IMG/VR virus record: IMGVR_UViG_3300021426_000005
Source: a virus
Taxonomy: Duplodnaviria > Caudoviricetes
Length of the DNA: 64,000 bases
Direction: 5' to 3' (one strand)
Shown here: in pieces, positions 28,217-63,495 of the stretch
Layout of the letters: each line of letters begins with the position of its first letter
Numbering within the stretch: the first letter of the stretch is position 1
Position numbers and translations under genes: made by a program
The notes under the pieces: model-generated
What the model was told of the DNA's origin: nothing
Database searches by the model: none
Seen by the model: the letters and a program-made list of their open reading frames with translations, nothing else

Positions 28217-28597
28217 TCAGTCAGGTTTCCAGCCATCATCCAGATAGCATTTATAATGTTGGCTGTTATCATATCGAACGGTTGGGACTTCCCTAAGCCC
28301 AAATTCAACCTTTATATCCGAGATCAAGTCATCCGGAACATTGGGATTCATGTATACTATAGGTTTCCCTTTGTTTGAAAAGTCTACACGACCTCTGGGG
28401 TAGTAATTATACGGCTTATTGCACCCCTTTGGTTTTACGTCCTGCCAGAGCTTCTTGTGATTATAGGTATTGCCAGATTTTGCTACACCTTGAGTATCAT
28501 AATCAATAAACGGAAATGCTAATAATTCATCATCTATGACCCAGAACACACCCCTAGTTGGTTCTTTCGCCATTGATTTTATATATAGCTTCATCAT
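28217..28597 (-). CDS. hypothetical protein with MKLYIKS leader
   Basis: ORF track; GVFW...H...W...Y.YYPRGRV. Confidence 0.65.
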   Translation of the reverse strand: MMKLYIKSMAKEPTRGVFWVIDDELLAFPFIDYDTQGVAKSGNTYNHKKLWQDVKPKGCNKPYNYYPRGRVDFSNKGKPIVYMNPNVPDDLISDIKVEFGLREVPTVRYDNSQHYKCYLDDGWKPD

Positions 28598-39600: not shown

Positions 39601-39694
39601 TGGGGGCGGTGGGATTTGAACCCACAATCTTCTTTGCTTTCCAGAGAAGTAATAACTTCTAAGGCAAGTGACTTAGCTTTTAGTCGACGCCTCC
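39601..39694 (-). tRNA. atypical or pseudo tRNA with hairpin-expanded anticodon loop
   Basis: GGAGGCG/CGCCCCC acceptor, D arm GACT/AGTC, GTGGG-TTCAAAT-CCCAC T arm; 26-nt anticodon loop; no encoded CCA. Confidence 0.55.
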
Positions 39695-39862
39695 TACATG
39701 AAGAGCTTCCGCCACTTCATGATTAGATCAGTTATAAGACAGGTTTACACTACCATTACGTTCATTTTGTTCTGTCCAGATCAAGCTGGATCTCATTTGT
39801 GGCTGATGAACGAACGTCCCACCAGAAATTTGCATTCACAATGTGGGAGAAAGAAACAGCCC

Positions 39863-39973
39863 TGGATGGCAGCAGTGAGAATCGAACTCACCAGCGAATG
39901 AATATGGTCTGTACTTCTACAGTCCTGAGATTCAAGTTAAATCTCTACATTCCCACTTCAGTGGTCGCCGCCA
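39863..39973 (-). ncRNA. tRNA-like RNA with 8-bp acceptor stem, canonical T arm and CCA
   Basis: TGGCGGCG/TGCTGCCA-T-CCA; GTGAG-TTCGATT-CTCAC; multibranch core. Confidence 0.6.
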
Positions 39974-40194
39974 AAAATGTCCCCAGAAGTTCTATATACC
40001 TCTGGGAAATAAAAGAAGAGGTATTTATTTGGATGTCAGTTTCTGCTTTGTTTTGCTTGTGTGTAAGCAGGATCACACATTGGACAAGAAACCAAGTCAT
40101 CACCTCAGTTTCCTGATACACCCCATGAAGGGGATTCACATGGGGTGTTATTTGGGGAAGATGTCCGCAGCTACTGACGCAGATTGCTGTGGAC

Positions 40195-40271
40195 TGGTGG
40201 AACATGAAGGACTTGAACCTTCGATCGTCCGGTTATGAGCCGGAAGCCTTAACCAGCTTGGCCAATGTTCC
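40195..40271 (-). tRNA. tRNA-CAT (probably Ile2; Met not excluded)
   Basis: TCCGG-CTCATAA-CCGGA anticodon arm typical of Firmicutes Ile2; CCA. Confidence 0.88.
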
Positions 40272-45941: not shown

Positions 45942-46865
45942 TTATTGATAGTAGAAGTGATTTTGATATCCGTCACCCCACCATGAGTTATCGCTGTTAA
46001 ATTCCCCCATATTTGAGAAATAGTAATCTACGGCATCATAGCAAGCCTGAGTAGGTGTACAACACCCAGGCCAATATCCACTAAACTGACCTGGCTGAGT
46101 AAGTACATCATATACAGTTGCAGGAAATCTGCTATCGTATACACGATTCATGACCCCGGCAGCAACCTTAGCTTTACTATATGTGTCAATATACGATGAC
46201 CCAGCTTCATGCCAGACTATTTCTGCAAGTAGCTGCCTATCATAATCAGCTACTGTTGGTGTTTCCGGAACATATTCATGAAGGATTTCCATATCAGGGC
46301 TGCACTCTGAACATTTCCTTGCTTCAATATCCTCAGTATCGGTTATTTCATAACATTCTGAGGAATACCATCTGCACTTGTTTGTATGAATGTAGTGGGT
46401 AGATGGCTTAAATACTGTGAAAGTAGGTTCTTCAACCACAGGTTCTGTTGTTTCAAATTCTTCTTCAATGATTTCTTCTTCGACAATCTCTTCAATTTCT
46501 TCTGGTTGAAATTGTTCTTCTTCAACGTCAACAACTTCTTCCTCTACAGTTGCTTCCTCTATTTGAACGGTTTCGGTTGTTGACTGTGTACTAGTAGTGA
46601 CTACGGCAGTAGTGGTTTCTGTAGTAACTGTAGTGGTCACTGTAGTAGCAGGGGCTGTAGATGTAGCTGTAGTCACTTCAGGAATAAACGGATCCACATC
46701 ATATGCTAGTGCTTCCTTTATTTGAGAAGTCCTAACTGCTACCGGAGTGCTGGGGTCTGTGTCTATGCTGTAGCGTCCACTCCCAATCAACATCAAAGAC
46801 AGCATAGAGGGAATTAAAATAATTTGTGTCGCCCTTTTCAAGCGACTTCGGTTTAGAATTTTCAT
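45942..46865 (-). CDS. SleB/CwlJ-like cell wall hydrolase (Hydrolase_2) with N-terminal anchor and T/E-rich linker
   Basis: LLAEIVWHEAG...VAAGVMNRV.DSRFP.TV.DVL.QPGQF; AGGAGG RBS. Confidence 0.85.
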   Translation of the reverse strand: MKILNRSRLKRATQIILIPSMLSLMLIGSGRYSIDTDPSTPVAVRTSQIKEALAYDVDPFIPEVTTATSTAPATTVTTTVTTETTTAVVTTSTQSTTETVQIEEATVEEEVVDVEEEQFQPEEIEEIVEEEIIEEEFETTEPVVEEPTFTVFKPSTHYIHTNKCRWYSSECYEITDTEDIEARKCSECSPDMEILHEYVPETPTVADYDRQLLAEIVWHEAGSSYIDTYSKAKVAAGVMNRVYDSRFPATVYDVLTQPGQFSGYWPGCCTPTQACYDAVDYYFSNMGEFNSDNSWWGDGYQNHFYYQ

Positions 46866-47054: not shown

Positions 47055-47771
47055 TCAGATAAATATCAGACTGTCATCATAGAGAATTGAAGCCGCTACA
47101 TCCCCAACGACACCGTCATTTATAGCAGTGATGAGCTTACCCTTGCGTGTTGCGTTGGGGAACACCTGCTGAATCTCATCCATATAATCAGCAGTCTTTC
47201 TGTTGAGCTGATATCCAGATTTTGTTTTCCCCTCATTGCTCTTACCTGTACCCTCATATACAGTTATGTATATTTTTCCACCAGGCTTTACAATCTTTCT
47301 CATGTTTTCAAGAACACCAAGTCTATTCTCAGGTTCTTTTATAACATTGAGAACATTTGAACAGGTAGCAGTATCAGCCCCACCGTGTTCTCTTACAAGG
47401 TTGATGACTTCTCTGTTATGCTTCTTAGAGCGGTTGAATGGGTCAAGTACCATATTGATAACATCGTACTGTGTCAAATATTCTGCCACATTGTCAAACC
47501 GACCGCCACCGTAATCCACATTGACAGTTCCAGGTTCAAAGGTCACAAGATGAAATAATGCAGGAAGATTCTTAGCATTGATAGATGTATTTTCAGAAGT
47601 AAACTCCTGATCTATCTCCTTGATGGAATCCCACACATCTTCATACACATCATGTTCACCAGTATATTCCTCATAAGGATCTTCTTCTCTGGCACTATAT
47701 ATCTTACGTTCGGGATAACAAGCTCTTGCAGAAGAAACGCTGTGTTTTCTACTTCTAACTGTAATTTTCAT
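47055..47771 (-). CDS. class I SAM-dependent methyltransferase with basic leader
   Basis: VDYGGGRFD, LDPFN, ADTATCSNVLNVI. Confidence 0.75.
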   Translation of the reverse strand: MKITVRSRKHSVSSARACYPERKIYSAREEDPYEEYTGEHDVYEDVWDSIKEIDQEFTSENTSINAKNLPALFHLVTFEPGTVNVDYGGGRFDNVAEYLTQYDVINMVLDPFNRSKKHNREVINLVREHGGADTATCSNVLNVIKEPENRLGVLENMRKIVKPGGKIYITVYEGTGKSNEGKTKSGYQLNRKTADYMDEIQQVFPNATRKGKLITAINDGVVGDVAASILYDDSLIFI

Positions 47772-47852
47772 AGCAATTTCACCTCAAAAAATAAAAAATC
47801 GGTAATAGAATTACTCTCTATTACCGATATATAAGGTTATTTTGCATTGTAA

Positions 47853-48410
47853 TTAGCGGTCTAATGGTAATCCATAGCGTTGTAACTGTACATTCCACCG
47901 ACCTATTCCATTACCATCTGAGGTTTCCTGCAAGGTATTAAGCCACTGCCTGCTCCAATTCCAGCTATCAGCTACATCAAAACCAGGATAATTGTTTAAG
48001 ACCCACAGCCACTTATGATGGAATATATACTCTGAATGTCCGGTCTTGATTGTTCCGTCAGGTTTCACTGTAATATAGTCTCCGACCTTGGGCTCTCTTG
48101 CAGTATCAAAATCAGGCGATTCCTGAAATGATACATCACCGGTTTTAGGGGAATACCGTATGCAGTTATATTCATAGTCTGGATATTCTTCTGATAGCAC
48201 TTGTTCTGCATATTCTAAAATATCAAGAGGAATTACATCTTCGGCATAATCCCTATGGAAATATATATCTCCGCCGATTTCTTTACCCACACCGTATTTT
48301 GAACTTCGTTTTATAGGTGAGCCTTTATATGTTTTAAGGGTAGATCCTACTTCAGTCTGCTTATCATTATACTCCTGCGGAGTAAGTGCAGCTCTTATAT
48401 AACGTTTCAT
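47853..48410 (-). CDS. MKRYIRA-leader protein resembling the accessory domain of phosphorothioation-associated methyltransferases
   Basis: VSFQESPDFDTAREP...IFHHKWLWV. Confidence 0.5.
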   Translation of the reverse strand: MKRYIRAALTPQEYNDKQTEVGSTLKTYKGSPIKRSSKYGVGKEIGGDIYFHRDYAEDVIPLDILEYAEQVLSEEYPDYEYNCIRYSPKTGDVSFQESPDFDTAREPKVGDYITVKPDGTIKTGHSEYIFHHKWLWVLNNYPGFDVADSWNWSRQWLNTLQETSDGNGIGRWNVQLQRYGLPLDR

Positions 48411-48447
48411 TCATACTACTCCTCGCCATGCGTGATGTGAGCCTACA

Positions 48448-48879
48448 TCAATGTGAGATTTCTTCAAGAGTAAGCGCTTCATTCTTTACCACATCTTTCT
48501 TTGATTGGATATATGCTTCGATGTGCTGGGTGATTATTTCTTCCAGATCAATACCGTTTTTATCAATTATGGCCTTGGTAGTAGTTAGCAGACTATCAGT
48601 AACATTATTGATCACTGTACGGAGCACATCAGCTTGAGTTTCCTTATTCCAGGCATCATTCTCCTTCAGTACCGCTACCGTGGTCTGCTCACAGTGATCT
48701 ACACAAGTAGCAACGGTAGTTGTTATGTCAGAAATAACTGCCTTGATGTTCTCATTATCGGTTTTAGACTTCAGCCATGAAGCCAGAGCTGGAAGTAGCA
48801 CTGTAGTGATCACAGCAGCTAATATGGTAAATACCAATTCAATTATGGATTTAATTACATATTCATTCATAATAATCAC
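48448..48879 (-). CDS. holin-like protein (LL-H type)
   Basis: N-terminal TM, V...EQT, IEAYI motifs. Confidence 0.55.
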   Translation of the reverse strand: MIIMNEYVIKSIIELVFTILAAVITTVLLPALASWLKSKTDNENIKAVISDITTTVATCVDHCEQTTVAVLKENDAWNKETQADVLRTVINNVTDSLLTTTKAIIDKNGIDLEEIITQHIEAYIQSKKDVVKNEALTLEEISH

Positions 48880-49358
48880 TTCTCCGGATCGTATTCAGAA
48901 AAATAAGTATTCATAAGGTCCCTCACAAGAACATTGTTGTGGTGTGATGCCTTATCTATCGTATCATTGAAATAGAGCTTTCCTTGGCTATTGAAACCAC
49001 AAAGATGATATTCTCGGTATAGGATTATCAGCTGTTTCAGTTCTTCACTGTAATCTTCATTTCCGGCTTCAATAGCAAGCTGAATCCGTTTCGATTTCTC
49101 AAGGATCTGGGTCTGTAAACCTGTCCGCTGCGCTGATGATAACTTAGTCAATTGTTTTGTTATATCATCAATTGCGGCTTTTGTTTCAGATATGGTATCC
49201 TTAGTTTCGGCAGTTGTCTGCATTACGTCCTTGATGTACTTTTTGCCGGGATTGATTTTCTCCCAATTATTCAGAACTGCGACTAAAACGGCCGAAATCA
49301 GCGGTGCGATTACCGATATTAAAGCAAGCATAGTTTCTTTATTCATCGAAATCATCAT
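48876..49358 (-). CDS. membrane-anchored coiled-coil protein (holin-adjacent)
   Basis: N-terminal TM; LY.EYH..GFN motif. Confidence 0.5.
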   Translation of the reverse strand: MMISMNKETMLALISVIAPLISAVLVAVLNNWEKINPGKKYIKDVMQTTAETKDTISETKAAIDDITKQLTKLSSAQRTGLQTQILEKSKRIQLAIEAGNEDYSEELKQLIILYREYHLCGFNSQGKLYFNDTIDKASHHNNVLVRDLMNTYFSEYDPEK

Positions 49359-49695
49359 CCTTTACGGACTTTATCAGCCATTTTAGGTACTGGTCGGTTT
49401 CTTTATCGCAAAGAGGACAGATACCGGTGATTTTTTCGACTTCCTGATCTGATTCAACCAATGCTGAAATAAACACTCCGTGACAGGAATCGCATTCCGC
49501 TATGAAGTGGTTAGCGATATTGTTATCAAGTTCGATGTCTATATCATCTTCTTCAACATCATCAATGGTGTCCTGGATGTCCTCAACAGAATCCGATATA
49601 TCATCTATAGTATCCACAATATCGTAATCCTCTTCATCAGCAGCTACAATTCTTGTAGATGATTTTATGGGCTTCCTATTCTTACTCAGCTTCAT
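49339..49695 (-). CDS. acidic Zn-ribbon protein with basic leader (RKPIKSSTRIVAA)
   Basis: D/E-rich segment, CDSC...CPLC. Confidence 0.65.
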   Translation of the reverse strand: MKLSKNRKPIKSSTRIVAADEEDYDIVDTIDDISDSVEDIQDTIDDVEEDDIDIELDNNIANHFIAECDSCHGVFISALVESDQEVEKITGICPLCDKETDQYLKWLIKSVKDDDFDE

Positions 49696-49830
49696 GATGT
49701 TCAGCTCCTTACATAAAAATAACGGTAGCAGATGTTATTCTACTACCGTTATATAAGGTTAAACATACTTCTTATGTAAAGCCCCTTATGGTACAAGTAT
49801 AATACACATAGGGGCTGTTGCAAACTGTTT

Positions 49831-51004
49831 TTATTTGCTAAGAATTCTATTAACTTCTTTCTCAAGTTCGTCAATGGAATATACTTGTTTAGAGCGATTT
49901 CCAGCCACATTCCTCACGATTACGGTACCGTCTTCTCTGATAAATACCTGCGCAGATGTCCACTTTTTAGGGTCAGATCGTAATAGATAGTTCTTACCGT
50001 CCATAGTCCAGGCTTCTTTAACATCGTAGGGACTAGATTCCACCCAATCTACAGCAACATCATAAGTGAGTTCATTTGTAGGGGCGACATAATTAGGATT
50101 ATTGATTCTGCGCTTGATAACTTTAGCGTTATAGCCATTGTCGATGTAGTCCCTAACATCTTGTTTTGCCAGCTTCAAGGATTCTGAAGATGTGTCATCA
50201 TATACAGCTATATCTTCCCAACCATAGCCAGGAACATATTCCTGTGAAACATACACTTCTATCTTTTTAGCATTTCGAGCGGATTTAATATACCGTTTCA
50301 TTGTAGTATTCACTCCTATAGAAAATATTAGTAACACCCTTATTACTGGAGTGTTGCTCTTTTCAGTTCTTCGAGGTTGTCAATAACGTGTAAGGAAGTA
50401 ATTCAGGCAACCTGTAACGATTTCATCATAAGTATGGGTGAAATCAAAGTCGTCCTGAATGTACTCCCCACCATCTTTCACAAGCCATATGTCATACCTA
50501 TCATCAGGATCTGGTGGGATAAGTTTGAATCTTGCATAGACATCACCATCATCAAATCTGATGATGACCTCTCTATCTGAAACCTCAACACCGTAGCCGA
50601 GGTCCTTAATTTTTTGGTACTGCCAAGAATCTTCCCAATTCTCACGGGAAGATTTGATGTATCTTTTCATAGAATTACCCCTTTCCCGCTCAAAGTTTTG
50701 CTACCGTAGCATCAGCAGAATTGCCGACATAGAGTTCGCCAGTATCTTTGTCTTCGATAAGGATACCAGAACGATAACCATTGGTATCATTCCAGGCAAT
50801 GCCTATGATCTCATAGTTCATTTCCATAGGATCAAATGTACCAGCCATATCTTCTGCAATACCGGAAGCTACCATATCCCTGAGTTCTTTTCTGGTGAAT
50901 AGGTACTTACCGGGGAATCTGCTTGTCTGCTTGCCGTATTTCTTTCCGTTAGGTGCTTTCCATGCGGAAGCCATTACGGAAGTGGATTTGATATATCGTT
51001 TCAT
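49831..51004 (-). CDS. three unrelated proteins each starting MKRYIKS (49831..50301, 50380..50670, 50690..51004)
   Basis: Identical 7-aa starts followed by unrelated bodies. Confidence 0.75.
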
Positions 51005-51903
51005 CAGTATTCCTCCTCCCCAGAAATTGCATTGATAGCACGCTCTACAACATCATTTATCCGATCATTGTTATCTATATCTGTAAGATATTCCGGTACC
51101 ACAACATTAGCCCATTCTTCTGGATCAACATCAATACCGCGATCATCACATACACTTAATACCATATTCTGCATTAAGGCATCAAGGTTTTCGTATAATA
51201 GTATGCTGTAATATTCAGACTGACACATCTGAAGCATCCTAACCATATCAGTTGTACCGTCAAGTAAGCCATTAACTGCCGCTTCTTCATATGCACCGCT
51301 TTCCCAAATTTCATATGCAGATTTGAACAAACTATCATAATAAATATCTACTTCACTATTTGCTTGTTCTGCAATTGCATCTCCAATATATGCGTCACTA
51401 TCGGAGTAGTTATATACAAACCCGTCTAGGCAGTTTTCTGGGGCAAGATGTTCATACGGATAAAAGTCATATTCTGCGTTTAGTACGTTATTGGTTGCAG
51501 CCATGATAGTCTTCCTTCCTTTACGCCTTGTGGAAGCCTGTACATCGTCTTCGTACATGATTTCGTCCTCGTAGTAGTCTCTCAGTTCTTCGGCAATAGC
51601 CTTCCTCGTAGCAGGACTGAGCATTGCAACTGATCCTCTACCAGAGCCGAATTCTTTGTCGTATCTTCTTACACCTTCGTCTGCAACATACTGCCAGAGC
51701 TTAACCGCAAGATCACGGTCATACTTGCCCTTCTTGTACTTACGCTTCAGATTTTCGATTGCCGGAGTGATACGCTCACGGTAAAGATCTCCATCATTTG
51801 TGATAGTAAGCACCAGCTCATCTACATCTTCTCTGGAAACCTGAGATCTGTCTACGGCAGCCGCCTTGACCGGTCTGTTATAAGCACGGTTTATCTTTTT
51901 CAT
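51004..51903 (-). CDS. two-domain polyprotein-like ORF; C-terminal domain Ocr (T7 gp0.3)-like
   Basis: RPVKAA leader, VQASTRRKGRKTIMAA linker; DAIAEQANSEVDIYY...GLLDGTTDMVRMLQ...E. Confidence 0.65.
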   Translation of the reverse strand: MKKINRAYNRPVKAAAVDRSQVSREDVDELVLTITNDGDLYRERITPAIENLKRKYKKGKYDRDLAVKLWQYVADEGVRRYDKEFGSGRGSVAMLSPATRKAIAEELRDYYEDEIMYEDDVQASTRRKGRKTIMAATNNVLNAEYDFYPYEHLAPENCLDGFVYNYSDSDAYIGDAIAEQANSEVDIYYDSLFKSAYEIWESGAYEEAAVNGLLDGTTDMVRMLQMCQSEYYSILLYENLDALMQNMVLSVCDDRGIDVDPEEWANVVVPEYLTDIDNNDRINDVVERAINAISGEEEY

Positions 51904-52216
51904 AAGTAAGTTCCTCCTTAATAAAGTGGTTGTGTTATAGTTACCTATAACACTATATAAGGTTACAAGCCGTGTTTTTTGCATTTCACGATGTAGATAT
52001 CGGTCGCAAAGTTATATCATTTTTGCACATATCGCACTTGAATGTGTGGGGCTTTCTACCTAAAAGGTATAGGTTTTCTGTATGATATTCCAGACCGCAA
52101 TGAGGGCATTTGTACACCGGATCATTAGAATCATCACTGACACATATTGTTTCTTTTGCATCAGGATCTATCGGCCAGTCTAACGGATTATAGAAATGTA
52201 ACATATCACCAGCCCC

Positions 52217-53101
52217 TTACAGTATTGAAAGCCGGTCCGCAGTCTGAAGCATAGTAACCATGGGATATTTTTCATTAGCATCCATGAGATCATGTTTCTG
52301 AGCATCAGATACATCATACTCATTCATGTGCCAGCGGATAGCTAAAGCCTGCTCTGTTGTCAGCTTGAATATCTTCATAGCAATGAACATGGAAGTTACA
52401 CCATGACCGAATGGAAGTGAAGAACCTTTGTACTTATAAGCAAGCTGCTGTTCCCATACACCAGTTTCTTCATTCTTGACGTTCTTCTTGTAGGGCTGGT
52501 AGAAATCAATCTTACACCAATCATGGCAGATAGCAGCCAGAATAGCCTGAGCCAGATCAACTTCTGCATAAGTATCTATGGTGCTGAGTTCGATTATCTT
52601 ATCTACAACCTTGAGGGTGTGTTTTGCAAGACCACCTGGGCAGCAGTCATGATATATGGTACTTGCCGGAGCTATAAAGAAATCGGTACTTTCAAGCCAC
52701 TGAATAGCTCTTGTTACATACTTCTTAGCTGTATCATCATTGCCATGGGTGGCATAACAGCAAGCTATGATATAGTTTTCCAGCTCCTCCTTGATAAGTT
52801 TGATCTGCTCCTGATTAGGATCATCTTTTGCTAACAGCTCCTGGCTAACCCTACCACCGATGTAAACTTCCGGTCTGAACATGGTAAACCGAGTGAAGTT
52901 CTCCATAACCTCCGGAATATCATCAGCGCCGAATGTTTCATCAGCAGGTATGAAATGAGGCTCATGCTGGTCATCAGGGACTATAGTACCTACTTTAGAA
53001 TTATCGGAAGTCATCGTTACGGTCCAGGAATCTGATATTCCTATACGCTTGAACCAGTATGCGAATGATTCCTTAAAAGACATTGTATTGATGTTAAACA
53101 T
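52217..53101 (-). CDS. HD-domain phosphohydrolase
   Basis: APAS..YH....GGLAKHT, AICHDWCK, GHG, IRWHM, ADR. Confidence 0.85.
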   Translation of the reverse strand: MFNINTMSFKESFAYWFKRIGISDSWTVTMTSDNSKVGTIVPDDQHEPHFIPADETFGADDIPEVMENFTRFTMFRPEVYIGGRVSQELLAKDDPNQEQIKLIKEELENYIIACCYATHGNDDTAKKYVTRAIQWLESTDFFIAPASTIYHDCCPGGLAKHTLKVVDKIIELSTIDTYAEVDLAQAILAAICHDWCKIDFYQPYKKNVKNEETGVWEQQLAYKYKGSSLPFGHGVTSMFIAMKIFKLTTEQALAIRWHMNEYDVSDAQKHDLMDANEKYPMVTMLQTADRLSIL

Positions 53102-53254
53102 AAAATCAACTCCTTCATATACATTAACGATTTATATAAACTAGCAATACCGTACTTGTATCTTCACTATAATTATACAATACCGTACATAGTGTGTCAA
53201 TTGGTATAACGACCAAAAAGAAACTGCCGATATTGTTCATATCGGCAGCAAATG

Positions 53255-54391
53255 TCAATCTTCGGTATATCTTGAAGGATCATACTCAAACTTCACCAGA
53301 TCTGTGATGAATTTTCCTATTTCCTCCCACTTACCCAAGAAGTAATGTATACTATCATAGTAATCCATATCCTCTTGTTTAAGCTCTGGGAATTTCAGAT
53401 TTGGTGTGAAGTAGTAGATGCCATCATCGGGATCCTGATTGGTAGTGACCGTAATTTCTGGTAGATACTTTGCATCACTACCCTTAGCTTTTAGGGTTAT
53501 CTGCAAATCATCAGATACTTCCATATCATAGTCGTTTCTGTCAGCAGACTTCCACAGTTCAAGAAATGGTCCGTCAATCAGAGCATCAGAACTCTGAGCT
53601 GCGGTTATAGGTCTTTTTGTAATTTTCATTGTGTATCACCTCAATCAATTATAATCGGAATTCTGTTTACTACTGTGATATAGTTATCACTATATCCAGA
53701 AGCGTGTGTATAATATCTGTTATCGATCCAGTTGTTGCCGATAGCGTCATCCCAGCCATACTTTGCATATCTCAAAGCCCGCTGGAACATCTTATAAGAC
53801 GGATCGTTTATCAGCTTATCTCTCCAACGCTCTGCGGTTTTTCTGTCCTTATATACGATCAGATTATATCGTGCAGAGTAATTGTCCTGGGTCATTACAC
53901 CGAACTCAGGCTGATCTTCTTCGTAAGCAAAAGCTACATCATAGTCATTTGCTTTTATGTATCTTTTCATAATAGCACCTCACTTAAACTTAGTGTCTGT
54001 CCCAGAAATTCCAGCCAGATCCATCCGATCCAGAATTTCTTCCTCTGTTAGCTTTAGCTTCAAAAGTGGATTGTGTATCTAACCACAATGGTTCATCACA
54101 ATATACACCCCTTGATGCTAGTTTCGTAGCAACATCATATGTACTGCCAGTTTTCAATTTATACCAAGGTGAATCTAACATAGCCCAATCAGTATCTGTT
54201 ATTTTGCTAAAATAACAATTTCCGGCATCCCAATCCATACCTATGACTGCACCTATCGGAAACCTATTCAAAACAGCTTCGTATTCCTGGATGTCAGCAT
54301 AAGTAGTCTTTGAATATCCAGGAAATACAGGTAAATTGTTTAATTCCGTCAGTATACTTTCTTCTTTAGAACACCGAATATATCTTTTCAT
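53255..54391 (-). CDS. three leader-bearing hypothetical proteins (53255..53629, 53641..53970, 53990..54391)
   Basis: Starts MKITKRPITAA, MKRYIKAN, MKRYIRCS. Confidence 0.7.
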
Positions 54392-54400
54392 AACAGCACC

Positions 54401-54886
54401 TCACTTAAACATATTGTTATCCCAATCCCCGGTATAGTCAAGCATAGCCTTTCTACTGGGAATGGTTTGAATCTCATGATACTTTATTCCCCATTTGTTG
54501 ATCTTCAATACGTTCAGGGAATGTTTCTTCTTCTCTTTAATAAGATAATCGATATCCCTTATGTCAAGAATGAAAGCTCTTTGATAAGAAGCGAACAGAA
54601 CTATGATCACCCCATAAGTACCTTCTATCTTCGACTTTTTCAGAAGATTGTCATACTGATAGTCGGTTATCATTGAGAAGTCAAATCTATCGGCATAAGT
54701 GGCTTTGCTTTCGATGTAGAACATATTAGGTTTCTTATACAGCGTGAAGTCACAGATGTTCTTACTGCCTACAAATCCTGTCATTTGGTCCTTTATTCTA
54801 TCAAAAGAATACCCTTCTTCTGGTCGGTCTAACCAGGCTTCTATCTTAGCTTCTGCCTTTTTACCTAACAGATCATCTCTTACCAT
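54401..54886 (-). CDS. RecU-like Holliday junction resolvase (PD-(D/E)xK)
   Basis: GKKAE...ICDF......YIESKAT....F....I.DYQ. Confidence 0.7.
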   Translation of the reverse strand: MVRDDLLGKKAEAKIEAWLDRPEEGYSFDRIKDQMTGFVGSKNICDFTLYKKPNMFYIESKATYADRFDFSMITDYQYDNLLKKSKIEGTYGVIIVLFASYQRAFILDIRDIDYLIKEKKKHSLNVLKINKWGIKYHEIQTIPSRKAMLDYTGDWDNNMFK

Positions 54887-55038
54887 AGTTCCTATCTCCT
54901 ATATATACATTAACGACCGGACAAATAAAGAAATGGTGAGTTCCCATTGTTTAGGAACTCACCATTATATAAGGTTATTTATTACATATTGTGATGAATA
55001 GGTTTGTGGTCAACTGTCTTTGAGTCAGAGAATGATTC

Positions 55039-55554
55039 CTAAAATCGCCCCGCGCTCCAATAGCCATCTATGGCTCTTTTAGCCGCCTTTAGTGTGGAAT
55101 CGGTTTCCCACATAACTTCATCAGTTTTGGGATCTATTGTATACCACCGCTTATTTTCATAGTTATAGTGTATGTTGAATCCTCGATATTCATACAAATC
55201 TTCACCTATACGCTTGGCTGTAGGTCTTTCACCACAATAATACTTAATTGCTGCTCTGTCGGGATTCGATAACATATCAGATTCCAATAGGTATGATAAG
55301 TTATCCTTCTCTGTAAAATTGAGCCTAATAATGCCTGTAAATGGGGTAGTTGATAAAGCCTTTACAGCCTTTTTATGTATAGCTAAAAACGGACCCTCTT
55401 CATAGCCCTCTAATATAACTCGCAACGTGTCAAGACGATTCCACCTTTTTATGAACTCATCTTTGGATAAGTTGGAATATATTACATCACCGTTCTTAAA
55501 TGTATATTGGTATCTTGCGTTGGGCTTAGAATCGCTTTTTATGTAGCGCATCAT
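55039..55554 (-). CDS. hypothetical protein with MMRYIKS leader
   Basis: ORF track; ends in YEYRGF...TLKAAKRAID module. Confidence 0.65.
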   Translation of the reverse strand: MMRYIKSDSKPNARYQYTFKNGDVIYSNLSKDEFIKRWNRLDTLRVILEGYEEGPFLAIHKKAVKALSTTPFTGIIRLNFTEKDNLSYLLESDMLSNPDRAAIKYYCGERPTAKRIGEDLYEYRGFNIHYNYENKRWYTIDPKTDEVMWETDSTLKAAKRAIDGYWSAGRF

Positions 55555-55659
55555 ATGATCGCTTCCTTTCATAATGATTATACCATAACAGCAGTATATT
55601 GTCAGTAGTAAATATCAACAATATACTGCTGTTCATTTTAGTTATTAAGTTATCAGTTA

Positions 55660-56631
55660 TTATTCATATGCCTCTGCTTTGTCATTGTACTCAGCGATAA
55701 GATCATTGACGTTACGGCTGTTTATCTGGCTATCGATTGCGGAAGCATCATCAAGCACCTGATTGAAGTAGCTTTCGCCGTACTTATCATATACAGCCTT
55801 AAACTCGGGAGAAAGCTGATTTACCATGTTGCGACCAACATTGTAAAGTGTATCAGCAATATCTACAAGAGCTTTATGCTCTGAATTGATGTATCCGTCC
55901 TCTACATCAGCCCAATCCCTTAGTATCAGGAGCATACTTACAAGATCATAGGGGATTTTTCCAGAATATGCAGCCTTTATAGCTTTACAACCTGATCTTT
56001 TTCTACTACTTACTACAGCACCTTTACGTCTTGAAGATTTTACTGATTTCTTACCACATGATCCGGTAACAGACTCTTCTGATACAAGGTTATCCAGATA
56101 TTCTAAAGTCTGGTATGCAAAATCAGCAGGGGTAAAGCAAGAACTCAGGTCATCGGTTTCTTGCCATTCATCATTGAAATAATCATCAGGGTATTCACGA
56201 ATAATATCTTCTGCTGTGATAGTATCGGTAGTATCACCATTCATATACCAATTGTAAGCATCTTCATAGCAATACTCCCGGAACTCATCCCAGGTCATTA
56301 TCTTATAGCAGTTATCCATCTGGATATTAGATGCCTTTACTGGTCTTGTGGAAGCCTTAACAAAGGGATCTTTGATAGATTCCGTTCTGCCGTAGTCATC
56401 GGGATTTTCGCCGTTCTTAGTGATGAGTACATCAATGTAGTTGTTGCCGTTAGAATTGAGAAATCCTAGCAGTTCATCTTCGGTCATAGATTTGATTCCT
56501 GGACCAGCACTGCCCCAGGTTTTCCATGTATTATCTTCGTCCAGAACCCATAGGATATCGTCAGGTGCATATCCAGCTCTAATAGATCTGTGGTTAGCAT
56601 TTTTATTGATTTTCTTACAATATATCTTCAT
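55660..56631 (-). CDS. three-domain polyprotein-like ORF with basic linkers
   Basis: RSIRAG leader; FVKASTRPVKAS; VTGSCGKKSVKSSRRK...KAIKAA. Confidence 0.7.
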   Translation of the reverse strand: MKIYCKKINKNANHRSIRAGYAPDDILWVLDEDNTWKTWGSAGPGIKSMTEDELLGFLNSNGNNYIDVLITKNGENPDDYGRTESIKDPFVKASTRPVKASNIQMDNCYKIMTWDEFREYCYEDAYNWYMNGDTTDTITAEDIIREYPDDYFNDEWQETDDLSSCFTPADFAYQTLEYLDNLVSEESVTGSCGKKSVKSSRRKGAVVSSRKRSGCKAIKAAYSGKIPYDLVSMLLILRDWADVEDGYINSEHKALVDIADTLYNVGRNMVNQLSPEFKAVYDKYGESYFNQVLDDASAIDSQINSRNVNDLIAEYNDKAEAYE

Positions 56632-56648
56632 ATGCTATACCTCCAGTA

Positions 56649-58225
56649 TTAGTATACAGATAGTCCGAATGCTTCGGCTTCGTCTTCTGTCATCATATGT
56701 GTAATAGCACCAACATTAAGCCTTACCCAAAGATGTGCCGTGAATAATTCAAGTTCACCACGCTTCCAGGCTTCAAGCTCCTCCTGAGTTGGAATATCAT
56801 TGTCCGCATTTACTGTAGCATCTGTCTGCAATGAACCATCCAGAAATACATAGTCTTTGATGTCATCTGAAAAGATGAAGCTACTTTCAGCTATATCATC
56901 GATTAGGTCCTGTGCAGTCCTAAATGAATCTGCAATTGTGAAAGTCCAAGAATTGACTTGTTCGCCTTCACCCTGTTCATAGCTATCAACCATAACGTCA
57001 ACATAGCAATCAGAAGGTACATATATTCTGAGGTTGCTTATGTCAGCAGCACCCATGATGGAGCTTGCTTTTACAGACTTCTTAGACTTATTGCATTTAA
57101 TCTTCATAATCTTCATCCCCCTCATTACGACCATACCACTCCCTGAAATCATACATACGGAACATATATGCCAGTGATTCTGCAAGTTCATCTGTGGAAA
57201 GTCCCTGAATGATCTCTGCATCTACAGTTTCCTTGCCAAGATAATCACAGGCGAATTCATATGCTTCCCATGCCTCTGACTCCTCTACGACCCAGCCGTA
57301 GCTTTCTGCTGACTTGATAGGTCTTCTACATCTGGGATTCTGTGAAGCGCTTACAGCTCTGCGTTTGTTTCTTATTATCTTCATAATATCAACACTCCTT
57401 ATCTTATAATGCTTATCTTATAATGCTTGCAGCTTCAAGGAGATCCTGAAGATTATTGTATTCAGTCTTTTCTCCATAAGCATCTATAACATATCCTGAA
57501 CCTAAGTCCACATTGATGTATGCTGTATCACCCATGCCGTTATCGTAATCAAATTCATCAAGTCTACCGTTATGGGGTGTTGCACCGATAAGGGGCAGTC
57601 CAGCACAAAGCAGTTCTCCGATGTCATATTCGTCCCAAGTATAAAGATCATCACAAAGACGGTTTGCATCTTCTGCCGTGTTGACTTCATAATTGAAAGG
57701 AAGCTCATACATATTACCTGCTGGATTCCACCAGACGTAGGCTTCGTGTGTATCATCATTGTATGTACAGCCGAAACCAAGCCACATATACTTATCCCAC
57801 CAAGGTGTAGGTTCATTAGCATACTCAAAACCATTAGCCTCAAGTATTTTTATCACATTTGCATTGCTTCTGTCAGCCTCTCCCTTAATAGGGCGCTTAT
57901 TAGATTTATTCATGTAAATCTTCATATTGACACTCCTTTACAACATAAACGGTATTTCCAGAAGCCTTACTCTGAATACATCTGAAATGTCAGGTTTACC
58001 AAATTCTAAACCTTCGGTTTTGTCTATCAAGGCTTCTATCTCAGATATATCTTCGTAGTAAACTTCACCAAGGAAGCACTGACCATCCAGATCTATCTGA
58101 GCTTCTTTTACACATTCCAGAGAGTTTAGCTGCTGGACGAAATCCAGCAGCAACTCTATTTCATCTTGTGGATAATCTGTGATCAGATCCGGATCCACAA
58201 ATAACTTGAACTTATTGTATTCCAT
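56649..58225 (-). CDS. four acidic hypothetical proteins (56649..57107, 57097..57384, 57413..57925, 57938..58225); first three carry basic leaders
   Basis: KKSVKASSIMGAA; RRAVSAS...RRPIKSA; KRPIKGEA. Confidence 0.7.
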
Positions 58226-58230
58226 AAGCC

Positions 58231-60807
58231 TTAGATGTTTGTTATCGCATTGTAGATAGCCTCTGCGGCAGGCTTTGCAATACCCTTAACATACTCTTCG
58301 ATAGCTTCCATATCGTAGTTGTTAGGATCAAGATTGCTTGAATTCCAGATAAGTTCAACCTTATCGATCTCATTACCCTTTACATAGATATAGAATTCAA
58401 GTTCTCCGACTTCCTTACCACCACGGAAATCATAGTGGTAGGCATCAGGCAGAGCATATGATACAACGTCTATATCATCAGTATCGAATGTAGCACTGAT
58501 TGTATAAGTAACGCCTACATATGTGCTAGAAGCATAATACTCAAAGGTATCTTCCATGATAGTAGCGTATTCATCAACCTTAGCAAGCTCAGTTGTAGGA
58601 AGAACTTCACGCTCTGCGATTCTGTAGAGTTCATCTACCGTAGACTCAGATATTGCTTCTCCATTGGAATCGAAGCCATAACCGTAGTCTTCGTCTTCGC
58701 CATTGATAGGCTCAAGGTCTTCATAGGTAGCCGCTTCAACAGTCTTACCAGCTACACTCTTTACAGCGGCAGCCAGCTCCTCCGCATCATCATCTTCATC
58801 ACCAAGAATAGGTGTGATCTCATCGGTAGGCTGAATATACACTACATCATCTTCGGTACCGTCATAGAATGACAGTGCTTCATCTGTAACTGCACAGCCG
58901 ATACCTTCGTATCCGTCATCGTGAAGAATACCAAGGGTCATATCTGCAAGCATCTGATTGTACTCTGCTGCTGAGATATTTTCTGATGCACACTTTACCG
59001 ACTTAGCATCACTTCTTCTCACGGTAGAAGCTGTGATACCATTAGCAAGGAAACTACCTAATCCATTCTGGAAATCCGTATATGCCTTTATGCGGCTATC
59101 TTCATAGGCATCACGAATTTCAGATAGTCTTTCAAGCCATTCAGGTGTCAAATATTGATCATCAAAGTCAACCTGCGGTGCATAGATTTGTCTGTTACCA
59201 GGGTAAAGCTGAATATAGAACTCATTTCCGTTTACAGCATTCTGATTGTATATGTAGTTTACCGGATCTTCATCAAGCGGATTAGCGAGATCTGCTTCAA
59301 GCATTTCCTCATACAAGTCATGATCCATAGCATCAAGGAAAAACCAAAAATCAGTTTCAACAGCTTCGGGACTCAAACCAGCATCTACTGACCAATCATC
59401 CGGACCGTTGTACTTCACACTGTCAGTATTCAGCCAAGCACCACTACTGGGATCCTGAAGGAAAGCATCTACATATTCCAGCATATCGCTGTCTTCAAAG
59501 CCGTCGTACTCATAAGAATCATTCAGCATATCATTGACATCTTCTTCAGAAGACTCCCATGTATCTGCCTTTATAGCCTTACGTCTGATTTTCGATGTAC
59601 ACTTCACTGACTTAGTACCAGTCACCTCTTCTGTAGCAGGGAAGATCTCAAAATCGAGAATACCGTCTCCATCTTCGTAGTTATTTTCATCATCTACGAA
59701 ATCATAGTATATAAGCTCACAGAATGTATAAGCTGTCTCAGAAGCATCACCATATTCATCATCGAACAGAGGGTCGCCGAACTGATTACACCACTCCTGG
59801 AATTTCAGTCGGGTCTCATCGTCCTGACAGAGTGGAAGTATAGCATCATACATATCAGCTCCTGGCTGACCTTCATATATCTTCTCGCCGTTGAAGTACA
59901 TTACAATGTCTCCACCCTCATACCAAGCGGCAGTTACTTTAGTGCCGTTTCTTCTCTTGGTAGAAGCACCAATACCCATTGACTTCCAGACTTTATCCCT
60001 GAAATCTGCGATTTCGTTTGTTACAACGAACTCACCATCAAAATTCTCAGCATAAACGTCAGGATCAATGTCTATCATATCACCGGTCTTGAAGTAAATG
60101 ATATTAACATACAAGCCCTGCATGAGAAGTTCATGTGCATAACTTTCTACTTCTGACCATTCATCAGGTCCGAAATATCTATCTGCGTATGCACCGCTGC
60201 GATTTGAACCAAGGTATCCGGTTACTGCGAAACCGTTTTCATTCCACGAAGCCTTTACAGCCCTACGTCTTTTAGCTGACTTAGAAGCCTTAATATTGAA
60301 CTTTCTTTTATAAACAGACCCACCTATAGGGGATGCGTATTTACGTCCCTTAAAAGTGAATGTAGCCGTACCATCGAGAGCTGCTTGCTTTGCTTCTTCA
60401 GGAGTATCATAAATCTCTTTAGATATATCCCATGCAAATTCACCATTTTCAGCTTCATTCATAGATCTACGAATTCTATACCCATATGGACGTTTAACTA
60501 CCCGAAGCTGCGCCCCATCATCATCTTTGAGAACGATTTCAGCATCATTTTCACGAACAAGCTCCGCACCGGCTTTTACAGATTTCTTACCACAAGCAGA
60601 TTCAACTACTTCGTAGCCCTTCTTCTTAGCCCAGGCTATCGCACCCTTTTTACTTTTCCAATTGTTAGGGGCAGAAGTAAGAACCTGATTATCCTCTGCA
60701 TTTTTCAAACCGTAATACTCTCCGGATTGACCCTTATTGATAACATAAGGAGTGACCTTGAGGGTAGAACTGTTGGAAGAAGCAGTTACTTTGAATTTTC
60801 TCATCAT
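58231..60807 (-). CDS. seven-module polyprotein-like ORF: mostly acidic domains joined by basic [VI]x[ASC] linkers
   Basis: KVTAS; KKSVKAG; IKAS..RRRAVKAS; IGAS.KRR..KVTAA; SVKC..RRKAIKAD; ITAS..RR..SVKCAS..ISAA; VKS..KTVEAA. Confidence 0.75.
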   Translation of the reverse strand: MMRKFKVTASSNSSTLKVTPYVINKGQSGEYYGLKNAEDNQVLTSAPNNWKSKKGAIAWAKKKGYEVVESACGKKSVKAGAELVRENDAEIVLKDDDGAQLRVVKRPYGYRIRRSMNEAENGEFAWDISKEIYDTPEEAKQAALDGTATFTFKGRKYASPIGGSVYKRKFNIKASKSAKRRRAVKASWNENGFAVTGYLGSNRSGAYADRYFGPDEWSEVESYAHELLMQGLYVNIIYFKTGDMIDIDPDVYAENFDGEFVVTNEIADFRDKVWKSMGIGASTKRRNGTKVTAAWYEGGDIVMYFNGEKIYEGQPGADMYDAILPLCQDDETRLKFQEWCNQFGDPLFDDEYGDASETAYTFCELIYYDFVDDENNYEDGDGILDFEIFPATEEVTGTKSVKCTSKIRRKAIKADTWESSEEDVNDMLNDSYEYDGFEDSDMLEYVDAFLQDPSSGAWLNTDSVKYNGPDDWSVDAGLSPEAVETDFWFFLDAMDHDLYEEMLEADLANPLDEDPVNYIYNQNAVNGNEFYIQLYPGNRQIYAPQVDFDDQYLTPEWLERLSEIRDAYEDSRIKAYTDFQNGLGSFLANGITASTVRRSDAKSVKCASENISAAEYNQMLADMTLGILHDDGYEGIGCAVTDEALSFYDGTEDDVVYIQPTDEITPILGDEDDDAEELAAAVKSVAGKTVEAATYEDLEPINGEDEDYGYGFDSNGEAISESTVDELYRIAEREVLPTTELAKVDEYATIMEDTFEYYASSTYVGVTYTISATFDTDDIDVVSYALPDAYHYDFRGGKEVGELEFYIYVKGNEIDKVELIWNSSNLDPNNYDMEAIEEYVKGIAKPAAEAIYNAITNI

Positions 60808-60815
60808 TAAACACC

Positions 60816-61031
60816 TCACTCAATTATTGCATTTGAAATGCTATTGTTAATGTTTACAAGATTCTGACTAAGCTCCAAAGCTATTGATAATGCCTCTTTG
60901 CCTTTATCAGTGCTGGTCCGTCCGAGCTTTTCAAGTCCTTCGATAATGTAATCGAAATCTGCTTCCAGATCCTTTATAGCATTGTCTAAGGCTTCATTGC
61001 CCTCAGTAGCAGCTAATATCATTCGTTTCAT
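60816..61031 (-). CDS. small helical protein with MKRMILAA leader
   Basis: GGTGGTG RBS; first gene after AACCTTATATA at 61067. Confidence 0.65.
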   Translation of the reverse strand: MKRMILAATEGNEALDNAIKDLEADFDYIIEGLEKLGRTSTDKGKEALSIALELSQNLVNINNSISNAIIE

Positions 61032-61236
61032 TTTATCACCACCGAACAATATATAATCATTACTTTTATATAAGGTTATCACACTTATTCTTATATATAC
61101 TATAACGACACAGACCACATTTAATTAAAACAAAAATAGCGACCTGCTAAAATGCAAGTCGCTGTTGTATATATTGACGAATAAGGTTGTATTGCCCTAT
61201 AGGGGATTTTCTTACTGAAAAGGTAAAATGCACAAA

Positions 61237-63495
61237 TCACTTACTTCTTCCAAGTAGAAAATCAAACAGTTCAGGATTCTTTTTCAGATCCAGTTTACCG
61301 TCTACGATATAGTTTGAGATAGCGCGTTTATCTTCAAGTATCTGATATACACGTTCATCTACCGTGTCTTTGGAAAGTAAGGTGTATACCTTTAGTGGTT
61401 CTGTACTGCCTATACGATTTGCTCTGTCTTCTGCTTGTGTCTTATCAGCTGGTGTCCAGCAATCATCGTAAAAGATCACGTTGGTAGCAGCTGTAAGCGT
61501 AAGAGAAACACCCATAGCACCGATAGTACCAAGCATTATCTTGTACTCAGGGTTGTTCTGAAAGACCCTTTTATGTTTCTCTCTATCTGCTTCATTCATA
61601 GAGCCGGTATAGCAACAAGTCTTATACTTCTTCGATAAGAACTTGTATATAGTCCTTAGTGGATCTATCCAGTTTGAGAAGATAATGACCTTTTCATTTC
61701 TTTCGACCACATCATCTACTAGCTCAATGAGCCGTTTCAGCTTTGCATTGCAGGCTATATACTTGTCATCGACGACTATAGTATCATCTACCAGCTCTGG
61801 ACTTCCGTTGACCTGACGTAATCTGAGCATTGCCGTAAGCGGATTCAGTGTGCTGAGAATTTCTTCTCGCTGCTGATAGAGTTCTTCTACTATGGCTTCA
61901 TACAGCGCTTGCTGCCGGGGAGTATTTTCAACGTATTCGGTATAATATATCTTCGGAGGGAGATCAAGAACTTCTGACTTCATTCGGCGGATCATATTGC
62001 CTTGGAGCATATCTTTCAGAATAGGTATATTCTTGTAGCCCATTATTTCATGATCACCGTATCCGCCAAATATGCAGAACTCCCTTGACCACATATAATA
62101 GCTTTTGAAAGCATGACCATCTACCAGCTTCAATGGTGTGAATACATCAGTAGGCTTGTTTTTGATAGGCGTACCAGTCATGGGGATCCACTGTACAGCT
62201 TTCTCAGTTCGCTTCTTGATATCCAGTATGACCTTACCCTGAGTAGATTGTGGAGACATATTTTTGTGACATTCATCTATAGCTATCATCTGCAATTTAC
62301 CTTCGTTTATCATCTTAATGATAGCTTCCTCAAGGGTGAATATCTTTCCGACCTTAGTTCTACCAAGGGCTTCTATGTTGGTTATAAGGAAGTATGGAAG
62401 CTCAGGGGCATCTTCTTTGCCATACATATGACCGGATACAAGATCCTCTACCTTATCAGGACCTGTGGTATTGAACCTCAAGCTGCCATTGCGTTTCTTT
62501 CTTGTACCAAGAATATAGCCAATCTCCTGACCATTGGTGTGCTTTGCTATGTCTTCCTGCCAGGAATACTTAGCTGAGTTCACACAAGTAATTATGAGAC
62601 AGTGCTTGTAGTTGTAGATCTTACGCTGATACATGGCGTAGTTGAGGACTTCTAAGGTCTTACCGCAGTTGTGGACCAGAATACCATTTACAAAGAAGTT
62701 CCGGTACGGATCAGCCATAACTATATCGTATGTCAATTCACAGCACAAAGGTGTCTTACTAACTACATGAGACCATGTAGGTATCATATATTCATCAACA
62801 GTAAAGACTTCCGAATCGGTAACTAAATCAGCTAGTTCTACATAGCCATTTCTGGTAAAGAATTGATGGTCTTCCGTAGCTTTTACTTTGTACCCGTTTT
62901 CAAGTTCCAGTTCGTATACAAGTTTGTATCCACTACACTTCATGTCACGGATTCGATTTTGCTTAGTTACATTATTCACTTCATCATAGGAAGAAGTTGT
63001 AAACGTATATTGCGGATTCGACTTAAATAGCCTATATAGGGTTTCCAATGGTCTAATAATACGGTGATCATTGACGTAGAAGGTGATTGAAGCATCACCA
63101 GCTATGCAGCCCATATCATCGGCCAGTATGAAGCCATTTCTGCCCTTGCTCTTAGCGTACTTCAAGAAAGCAAGCTGGTGATCATACAGCTTGTAACCTT
63201 CTTTAACATAATGATCCACATCAGATATATCTGCATCCGGTATCAGGTTTATATCGGTAGAATCTATAGAAGCATTCTCATTTATAGCTTCTTCCGACTG
63301 GATCTGTAATGTACCTTCGTAAGCAGTACCTTTGATCTCGTTTAGAAGCCACCCAAGATGACCTTTTGGAATAGTCCAGTATTTGTTTTCTGGTACCCAT
63401 TTTCTGCCGGGTACATTTTTGACCATAGCTATGAGTTGGGGATCATATTTGAATTTCAGTATGTAGAGGTCATTTTCCTGAATAGCATAAAACAT
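61237..63495 (-). CDS. SNF2-family helicase containing a mini-intein
   Basis: LADDMG^CGKT Walker A, DECH, MTGTP, MIRR.K..VLDLP, G.SLTL, QAEDRANRIG. Confidence 0.92.
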   Translation of the reverse strand: MFYAIQENDLYILKFKYDPQLIAMVKNVPGRKWVPENKYWTIPKGHLGWLLNEIKGTAYEGTLQIQSEEAINENASIDSTDINLIPDADISDVDHYVKEGYKLYDHQLAFLKYAKSKGRNGFILADDMGCIAGDASITFYVNDHRIIRPLETLYRLFKSNPQYTFTTSSYDEVNNVTKQNRIRDMKCSGYKLVYELELENGYKVKATEDHQFFTRNGYVELADLVTDSEVFTVDEYMIPTWSHVVSKTPLCCELTYDIVMADPYRNFFVNGILVHNCGKTLEVLNYAMYQRKIYNYKHCLIITCVNSAKYSWQEDIAKHTNGQEIGYILGTRKKRNGSLRFNTTGPDKVEDLVSGHMYGKEDAPELPYFLITNIEALGRTKVGKIFTLEEAIIKMINEGKLQMIAIDECHKNMSPQSTQGKVILDIKKRTEKAVQWIPMTGTPIKNKPTDVFTPLKLVDGHAFKSYYMWSREFCIFGGYGDHEIMGYKNIPILKDMLQGNMIRRMKSEVLDLPPKIYYTEYVENTPRQQALYEAIVEELYQQREEILSTLNPLTAMLRLRQVNGSPELVDDTIVVDDKYIACNAKLKRLIELVDDVVERNEKVIIFSNWIDPLRTIYKFLSKKYKTCCYTGSMNEADREKHKRVFQNNPEYKIMLGTIGAMGVSLTLTAATNVIFYDDCWTPADKTQAEDRANRIGSTEPLKVYTLLSKDTVDERVYQILEDKRAISNYIVDGKLDLKKNPELFDFLLGRSK
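62668..63108 (-). mobile_element. mini-intein (147 aa, no homing endonuclease)
   Basis: Starts CIAGDA, block B ATEDHQF, ends YDI...NFFVNGILVHN followed by Cys +1. Confidence 0.9.

Follow-up and report, generated by a model that had tools for sequence, protein, structure and literature searches.

In phage T4, the first 10 residues of the internal protein IPIII, MKTYQEFIAE, load foreign proteins into the head, and the protease gp21 removes this tag (PMC9026906; PMC8442874). The tag is found on IPI, IPII and Alt as well. Residues 4 and 7 are important in targeting, residues 8 and 10 in cleavage, and gp21 cuts after (L/I)-x-E (PMC9026906); IPI* is injected and counters restriction (PMC9026906; PMC8442874). 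In phiKZ, 201phi2-1 and SPN3US, 8–19 head proteins are cleaved, with redundant-site propeptides, C-terminal processing of the protease and ejected proteins (PMC9026906; PMC10052503). Here we describe a 64,000-nucleotide (nt) stretch of DNA (the window, as a whole) of the virus IMGVR_UViG_3300021426_000005 (Duplodnaviria; Caudoviricetes), in which 17 of the 23 genes between positions 47055 and 61031 begin with a short or a longer basic leader. These leaders are quite probably propeptides that target their proteins to the prohead and are then removed by a gp21-type protease of altered specificity.

The head module of this phage is homologous to that of T4 (gp21-type S77 protease, gp23-type capsid protein). 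The preliminary description had proposed an analogous but different signal, basic residues followed by [VI]-x-[small residue] and cut after the small residue; this reading agrees with the sequence data in every respect that they can address, except that the system is homologous to that of T4 and not merely analogous. In both phages, unrelated proteins share a short propeptide, a predicted one here, that begins M-K-x-Y and whose last residues form the protease motif, with an aliphatic P3; IPI* has a parallel in an Ocr-like cargo protein here. The differences lie at P1 (Ala, Ser, Gly or Cys here, Glu in T4), in the length of the short tag (7 residues against 10), in the number of genes (about 17 in one 14-kilobase (kb) stretch against three to four in T4) and in the charge of the cargo, mostly acidic here and basic in T4. 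In addition, some of the cargo here consists of multi-module polyproteins, and protease and coiled-coil scaffold form one fusion protein. Many cleaved proteins, propeptides with several sites, C-terminal processing of the protease and ejection, all of them predicted here, are features of the phiKZ type as well; the phiKZ-type enzymes cut after Glu (S/A-x-E) and are not known to act on a short tag common to their substrates, and these phages have Gram-negative hosts and genomes of more than 200 kb.

Herpesvirus assemblin is a fusion of protease and scaffold that cuts (V/L/I)-x-A↓S (the arrow marks the cut) at its release and maturation sites, a consensus that Welch et al. reportedly gave in 1991. 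The protease described here shares with it the fusion to a scaffold, a predicted cut after Ala, a P1′ residue that is Ser or Ala, and an aliphatic one at P3. In fold, assemblin is homologous to the prohead proteases of phages (Cheng et al. 2004, as cited in PMC10052503). The two differ in family, phage S77 and not herpes S21 by hidden Markov model (HMM), and in their substrates, which here include many non-structural cargo proteins. General scans returned only S77 and phrog_207 matches, no dedicated S21 comparison having been made, and the assemblin-like specificity would most simply be convergent. Anti-restriction at DNA entry is a likeness to phage P1 Dar, which is packaged in the head, and to T7 Ocr, a DNA mimic. 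Dar is packaged via a Dar/Hdf protein chain; Ocr is made after entry and not packaged, whereas here an Ocr-like domain carries a leader of the head-protease type.

Leaders on unrelated proteins

The short leader reads MKRYI[KR][ASC][AS..]; the longer, basic one ends [VI]-x-[AS]↓[AS] (Table 1). Nearly all genes in the window are on the minus strand. The ten near-identical short leaders that had been reported on unrelated open reading frames (ORFs) are all found at the expected minus-strand starts, each preceded by a Shine-Dalgarno-like sequence, and a six-frame scan of the whole window with M[KR][RKL][YFM]I[KRL] gave nine matches, every one a gene start and none elsewhere. The longer basic variants were likewise located (at 51903, 53629, 49695, 57116, 57384, 57925 and 56631), with a further one, FKVTA↓S, at 60804. 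With the first 14 residues removed, no pair of leader proteins in the window matched by BLASTP; almost all are without a known family in Pfam and PHROGs. The bodies had been called usually very acidic; most of the mature parts are acidic (net charge −1 to −94), the lone exception being that of 55554 at +2.

The codons under the short leader differ between genes (Arg CGT, CGG, AGA, CGA or CGC; Tyr TAT or TAC; Ile ATA, ATT or ATC), so selection acts on the peptide and not on the DNA. A repeat or recombination cassette at the DNA level as the source of the common gene starts was ruled out by this synonymous variation.

Two starts, MKRYIRRI (29217) and MKRLIRKI (7274), are without the small-residue end and their membership is doubtful; the former had been counted as a member. 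It opens a zeta-toxin-like P-loop protein (28594-29217, minus strand; PF06414, E 6e-10), whose gene follows a sigma-70-type promoter and lies just ahead of the leader gene at 28217-28594. This start may be what is left of a leader or may have arisen by chance.

Conservation of the leader was assessed for the 185-amino-acid (aa) protein (47853-48410), which has 195 homologs. Among the 46 aligned, M1 is present in 46, K2 in 40, Y4 in 33, I/V5 in 42, S/A7 in 36 and A/S8 in 40; residues 9–13 are variable. Across 120 homologs, the pattern M-K-x-Y-[IV]-x-[SA]-[AS] is retained. In the AlphaFold model (AF2) built from the homolog alignment, the predicted local distance difference test score (pLDDT) is 91.9, with residues 1–5 below 50 and disordered, which places the leader outside the fold. 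Foldseek gave no PDB match for this model at E ≤ 0.001 (the best, E 0.13–0.5, include Ugi), and in a wide VIA-align structure comparison the best Z was 3.6, with no known fold.

Leader genes are also found in relatives. A related complete phage (G001, 148.7 kb, terminal repeats) has about 20 of both kinds, among them a five-member paralog family with short leaders, and its variable locus is likewise placed between SNF2 and RecU. A 7.8-kb relative has 12 consecutive leader genes. In strains whose flanks are 95–98% identical, fusions and insertions occur within the leader locus. Megablast of the leader region against GenBank phages gave no match, and the nearest capsid proteins of cultured phages are at most about 26% identical. 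Among the papers searched, none contained the MKRYIK leader or reported a gp21-type protease that cuts after Ala.

Head protease, capsid protein and predicted cut sites

The head module of the phage itself is encoded on a contig (L106) found by looking for contigs that encode a 121-aa protein. It comes from a 147-kb ENA scaffold, matches the window at 100% identity across 10,505 nt and reaches 9.86 kb past the window end. The protease (L106:1172-2542, 456 aa) consists of a Peptidase_S77 domain (PF03420, T4 gp21-type) followed by a coiled-coil scaffold region. Its catalytic His and Ser motifs align with those of T4 gp21, and the G001 ortholog matches phrog_207 (E 2e-18); phmmer against the PDB did not find gp21, the relationship being detected by HMM libraries only. 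The C-terminal coiled-coil region contains nine [VI]-x-[AS][AS] sites, as compared to 2.0 in shuffles (P < 0.0002), among them IAA↓S, ITS↓S, INA↓S, ITA↓S, VTA↓S and VEA↓S; there is no excess of Glu-type sites in this region. The N-terminus of the protease reads MSGKTKRSVQA↓S. The capsid protein (L106:2559-4025, 488 aa) belongs to the Gp23 family (PF07068; family profile against T4 gp23, 6uzc, E 2e-46) and has about 75 variable basic residues ahead of the conserved core. Its start, MAIKKTFRP...RRPVTA↓STSITS↓G...SIMG↓ATNTSNI, resembles the long cargo leaders. A third protein of the module (111 aa) is acidic with basic ends. The preliminary description had asked whether capsid protein, scaffold and portal carry the same site as the leaders: the protease-scaffold and the capsid protein both do, and the pattern is repeated in G001 and in two further relatives (L019 and L025).

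The position of the cut can be taken from T4 gp23, which is cleaved at L63-T64-E65↓A66 (521-aa precursor, 456-aa mature chains). In the capsid alignment, most members have [LIM]-x-E-A-T-[QN] some 25 residues upstream of a conserved PNLIA segment; in the same columns, 40 of 40 members of this clade have [VI]-[MT]-[GA]-A-T-N-T. As the P1′ side (A-T-N) is common to both types, the alignment is unambiguous, and P1 of the capsid site appears to have changed from Glu to Ala or Gly in this clade. With Ala or Gly at this position, the cuts predicted for the leaders are MKRYIKA↓A and RPITA↓A.

Co-variation of the sites was scored in 52 IMG/VR loci with full-length capsid genes, the loci being searched with profile A3 since A1 was too diverse. 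In the 40 loci with Ala or Gly at capsid P1, the scaffold has 2.70 Ala-type and 0.67 Glu-type sites per 100 aa, and the 769 ORFs include 55 Ala-type leaders and 10 of the Glu type, the latter probably by chance. In the 12 loci with Glu at capsid P1, the scaffold has 0.18 Ala-type and 1.87 Glu-type sites per 100 aa; the 148 ORFs include no Ala-type and 11 Glu-type leaders (for example, MKLRILE↓S, MIKLIIE↓S and MIRVLE↓S). Three independent site classes agree on either side of the switch, and capsid site, scaffold sites and leaders change together between the Ala-type and Glu-type clades.

At one Glu-type locus (L023), ORFs at 295, 757 and 2224 near the head module start MLKIQIE↓S, MLRIMYE↓D and MLRINIE↓P, and the protease, called from a TTG start, begins AILIE↓T, like LLIE↓T of T4 gp21. 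The Glu-type sister clade seems to use the same tag logic.

Cargo, favoured reading and rival explanations

Several cargo proteins carry the motif internally. The 857-aa protein has nine sites (2.4 expected from shuffles, P = 0.001), and its 950-aa strain variant has 13; the 323-aa protein has five (0.87 in shuffles, P = 0.001). The internal sites sit in basic linkers that join acidic modules. SNF2, UvrD, SbcC and a 901-aa protein show no excess of the motif. In G001, the ortholog of the 118-aa protein has an extra 105-aa module that ends ITA↓A immediately ahead of the common domain. Residues 135–293 of the 299-aa protein (51004-51903) match the ‘ocr-like anti-restriction’ family phrog_2568 (E 1e-12) and are immediately preceded by the internal sites VQA↓S...IMA↓A; Pfam gave no match to this protein at E < 0.01. 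Four stand-alone homologs of the module were found, one of which (P0275) is annotated PF08684. All four carry a leader of their own that stops immediately ahead of the domain (PIKA↓ATDYESL, ITA↓STDYESL, TVMA↓SVDYDSL and MRDIKA↓STDYDSL). As the leader or linker always ends at the domain border, leader or linker and domain behave as a portable unit.

Our data suggest the following mechanism. The gp21-type protease of the phage would recognise the leaders and cut after a small residue and not after Glu as in T4, at sites with Val or Ile at P3, Ala, Ser, Gly or Cys at P1 and mostly Ala, Ser or Thr at P1′. The basic part, which has a short form (M-K-x-Y) and a long form (MK-x-basic-Pro, as also seen at the start of the capsid protein), would most likely direct the protein to the prohead core during assembly, in the manner of the T4 capsid targeting sequence. 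The same protease would cut multi-module cargo at the motif in the linkers. The mature proteins, mostly small and acidic and one of them an Ocr-like DNA mimic, would be retained in the head and pass into the next host together with the DNA. A large and fast-changing cargo that includes an Ocr-like anti-restriction protein is thus probably loaded into the capsid.

A fuller account, which we put forward tentatively as possible and would not yet call probable, takes in the whole clade (at least 40 IMG/VR genomes, about 90–200 kb). A T4-type protease would have been re-tuned from Glu to Ala, Gly or Ser at P1, together with the capsid, scaffold and cargo sites, and the 7-residue tag MKRYIKA↓A would load strain-variable, pre-made anti-defence proteins (Ocr-like mimic, polyproteins) that are freed in the head and injected ahead of gene expression.

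Several points weigh against propeptides of this kind. The phage is uncultured; we infer leader cleavage, targeting, retention in the head, packaging and ejection from the genes, and for the close relatives packaging is read in the same way. The leader genes sit amid recombination genes and not in the head module. The gene starting at 55554 has its own sigma-70-type promoter and that at 28594 follows one, so the leader genes are not all purely late. The motif is short, and some of the assigned members are weak (Gly at P1 in 57925; VSS↓A in 47771). The loci scored for co-variation are interrelated and form essentially two clades, which would amount to about one evolutionary switch and not to many independent ones. 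Finally, T4 internal proteins are basic and the cargo here is acidic, which makes retention beside packed DNA less obvious.

The leader proteins could instead enter the prohead as protease substrates that serve as accessory scaffold or core and are chopped up and expelled before packaging, like T4 gp22, gp67 and gp68. We consider this unlikely. Several of the proteins are indeed very acidic with many sites (nine in the 857-aa protein), like scaffold that is degraded to peptides (PMC9026906), and two products of the head module, the fused protease-scaffold and an acidic protein of 111 aa, look similar. However, assembly parts do not usually form a set this large, or one that differs between 95–98% identical strains and between related phages. 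The cargo also includes an Ocr-like module, and it is in the next host that Ocr acts; short-leader proteins fold compactly and have only one site, like T4 internal proteins that are cut once and retained.

Readings without the head protease are quite unlikely even when taken together. In one, which by itself we regard as very unlikely, the leader is a translation ramp, a ClpXP-type degron or a tag for another enzyme or a host protease such as Prp. An AAA second codon and A/T-rich early codons would favour expression, but the Arg, Tyr and Ile codons vary freely, which argues for selection on the peptide, and the motif recurs in linkers, scaffold and the capsid maturation site and turns to Glu with them in the sister clade. 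Prp cleaves ribosomal protein L27 and is used by the staphylococcal phage 80alpha; its motif is of the type Phe-Phe-Ala↓Ser, and a Phe-Phe-Ala motif is present in none of the leaders, no systematic co-occurrence search for another partner enzyme having been made. That the proteins are old paralogs, diverged except at an N-terminus now functionless, is barely credible in spite of the paralog family in G001, since neutral divergence would not keep only residues 1–8 across 120 orthologs and would not put the motif into capsid protein, protease and Ocr-like proteins alike.

If the leaders are propeptides for the head protease, capsid targeting by a short propeptide would be an old and widespread trait of T4-type heads and not a peculiarity of the T-even phages, and the ‘address code’ would be readable from a genome by comparing capsid protein, scaffold and gene starts. 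A provisional role, virion-delivered cargo with a probable counter-defence function, would follow for 17 proteins of unknown function here and for hundreds in relatives, with an Ocr-like protein that is pre-packaged instead of expressed early. The switch at P1 from Glu to small residues, followed by every substrate, would be a clean natural case of protease–substrate co-evolution, parallel to herpesvirus assemblin. A 7-residue tag for loading foreign proteins into the capsids of large uncultured phages could also be useful.

Operons and neighbouring genes

The promoter-like word AACCTTATATA occurs in seven exact copies in the window and in 16 with at most one mismatch (2.7 expected). Five of the seven exact copies head leader operons, in agreement with the preliminary description, which had also placed the word at the head of the virion operon. 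The copy in question, at 15830, heads the operon 15816-8302, for whose products PHROGs and Pfam gave no virion annotation; that assignment is plausible but unverified. The word is rare in G001, and a promoter comparison between both phages is uninformative. Holin and endolysin genes lie within leader operons, which points to late expression of these operons; the timing argument is better based on these two genes than on the ‘virion operon’.

Table 1. Positions of leader genes, promoter-like words and lysis genes in the window (↓, predicted cut)
Feature	Position	Strand	Leader and remarks
Leader gene, 125 aa	28217..28594	−	MKLYIKS↓M; beyond 47055-61031
Endolysin-like cell-wall hydrolase	45942..46865	−	PF07486, phrog_14642; downstream of 47771, ends operon from 47838
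Leader gene, 238 aa	47055..47771	−	MKITVRSRKHSVSS↓A; methyltransferase-like body (Methyltransf_23, E 1e-5, below cut-off)
AACCTTATATA, exact copy	47828-47838	−	
Leader gene, 185 aa	47853..48410	−	MKRYIRA↓A; phrog_16075, widespread family
Holin gene	48448..48870	−	phrog_13712, E 1e-9; in leader operon from 49760
Leader gene, 118 aa	49339..49695	−	MKLSKNRKPIKS↓S (KPIKS↓S); net −29, Cys-pair motif
AACCTTATATA, exact copy	49750-49760	−	
Leader gene, 156 aa	49831..50301	−	MKRYIKS↓A
Leader gene, 96 aa	50380..50670	−	MKRYIKS↓S; homologous to C-terminal module of 396-aa G001 leader protein
Leader gene, 104 aa	50690..51004	−	MKRYIKS↓T
Leader gene, 299 aa	51004..51903	−	MKKINRAYNRPVKA↓A (RPVKA↓A); Ocr-like module
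AACCTTATATA, exact copy	51954-51964	−	
Leader gene, 124 aa	53255..53629	−	MKITKRPITA↓A
Leader gene, 109 aa	53641..53970	−	MKRYIKA↓N
Leader gene, 133 aa	53990..54391	−	MKRYIRC↓S
AACCTTATATA, exact copy	54966-54976	−	
Leader gene, 171 aa	55039..55554	−	MMRYIKS↓D; own sigma-70-type promoter 55605-55577
Leader gene, 323 aa	55660..56631	−	MKIYCKKINKNANHRSIRA↓G (RSIRA↓G); 5 motif sites in all, polyprotein-like
Leader gene, 155 aa	56649..57116	−	MKIMKIKCNKSKKSVKA↓S (KSVKA↓S)
Leader gene, 95 aa	57097..57384	−	MKIIRNKRRAVSA↓SQNPRCRRPIKS↓A (RAVSA↓S); concealed from simple ORF calling
Probable leader gene, 170 aa	57413..57925	−	MKIYMNKSNKRPIKG↓E (RPIKG↓E); Gly at P1
Polyprotein-like cargo gene, 857 aa	58231..60804	−	MRKFKVTA↓S; acidic modules (net −94), motif-bearing basic linkers
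Leader gene, 71 aa	60816..61031	−	MKRMILA↓A; first after SNF2 helicase; G001 ortholog at same position
AACCTTATATA, promoter-like word	61067..61077	−	Heads operon starting 61031

Of the six genes without leader between 47055 and 61031, four encode a holin, a membrane protein, an HD protein and RecU, and the other two are small ORFs. The neighbourhood of the leader genes also includes an intein-bearing SNF2 helicase, UvrD and SbcC. An equal frequency of the motif among early or replication genes had been named as the observation that would speak against a cargo signal; none of the annotated SNF2, RecU, HD, UvrD and SbcC genes carries the leader, nor do the window DNA methylases, which were assigned by sequence inspection only.

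Near-perfect sigma-70-type promoters on the minus strand precede the HD gene (53172-53200, scoring 12/12) and the gene starting at 55554 (11/12, with an extended −10), and the host polymerase may read part of the region too. At 47798-47838, 49719-49760 and 54932-54976 (minus strand), AACCTTATATA is followed immediately by a strong terminator-like hairpin and T-run. This layout could block read-through from upstream, with new transcripts starting within the stem, and is reminiscent of promoter/stem-loop cassettes in the hyperplastic regions of T4-type phages. AACCTTATATA(T) is also found inside the protease-scaffold gene at L106:2138 (about 7.7 kb past the window end) and at G001:110502, about 420–440 nt ahead of the capsid gene start in each; few copies are otherwise common to the two. 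It may be an internal late promoter of the capsid gene or a by-product of a conserved N-L-I-Y peptide.

The SNF2 helicase gene (61237-63495, minus strand) encodes 752 aa with an intein. In one strain that is 95–98% identical (L107), the gene is intein-free and encodes 605 aa; in another (L108), it encodes 957 aa with Hint and LAGLIDADG hints. Between 26347 and 38990, several ORFs are DNA methyltransferase-like, as judged from a look at the N-terminal sequences only (for example, 26347-28092, 31544-32830, 32827-33612, 33627-34547, 35960-36667 and 38166-38990). If they are real, they would represent a heavy investment in anti-restriction, fitting an Ocr-like cargo. At 37089-40271 on the minus strand, nine tRNA genes are clustered (Glu, Lys, Pro, four Leu, Gln and Met).

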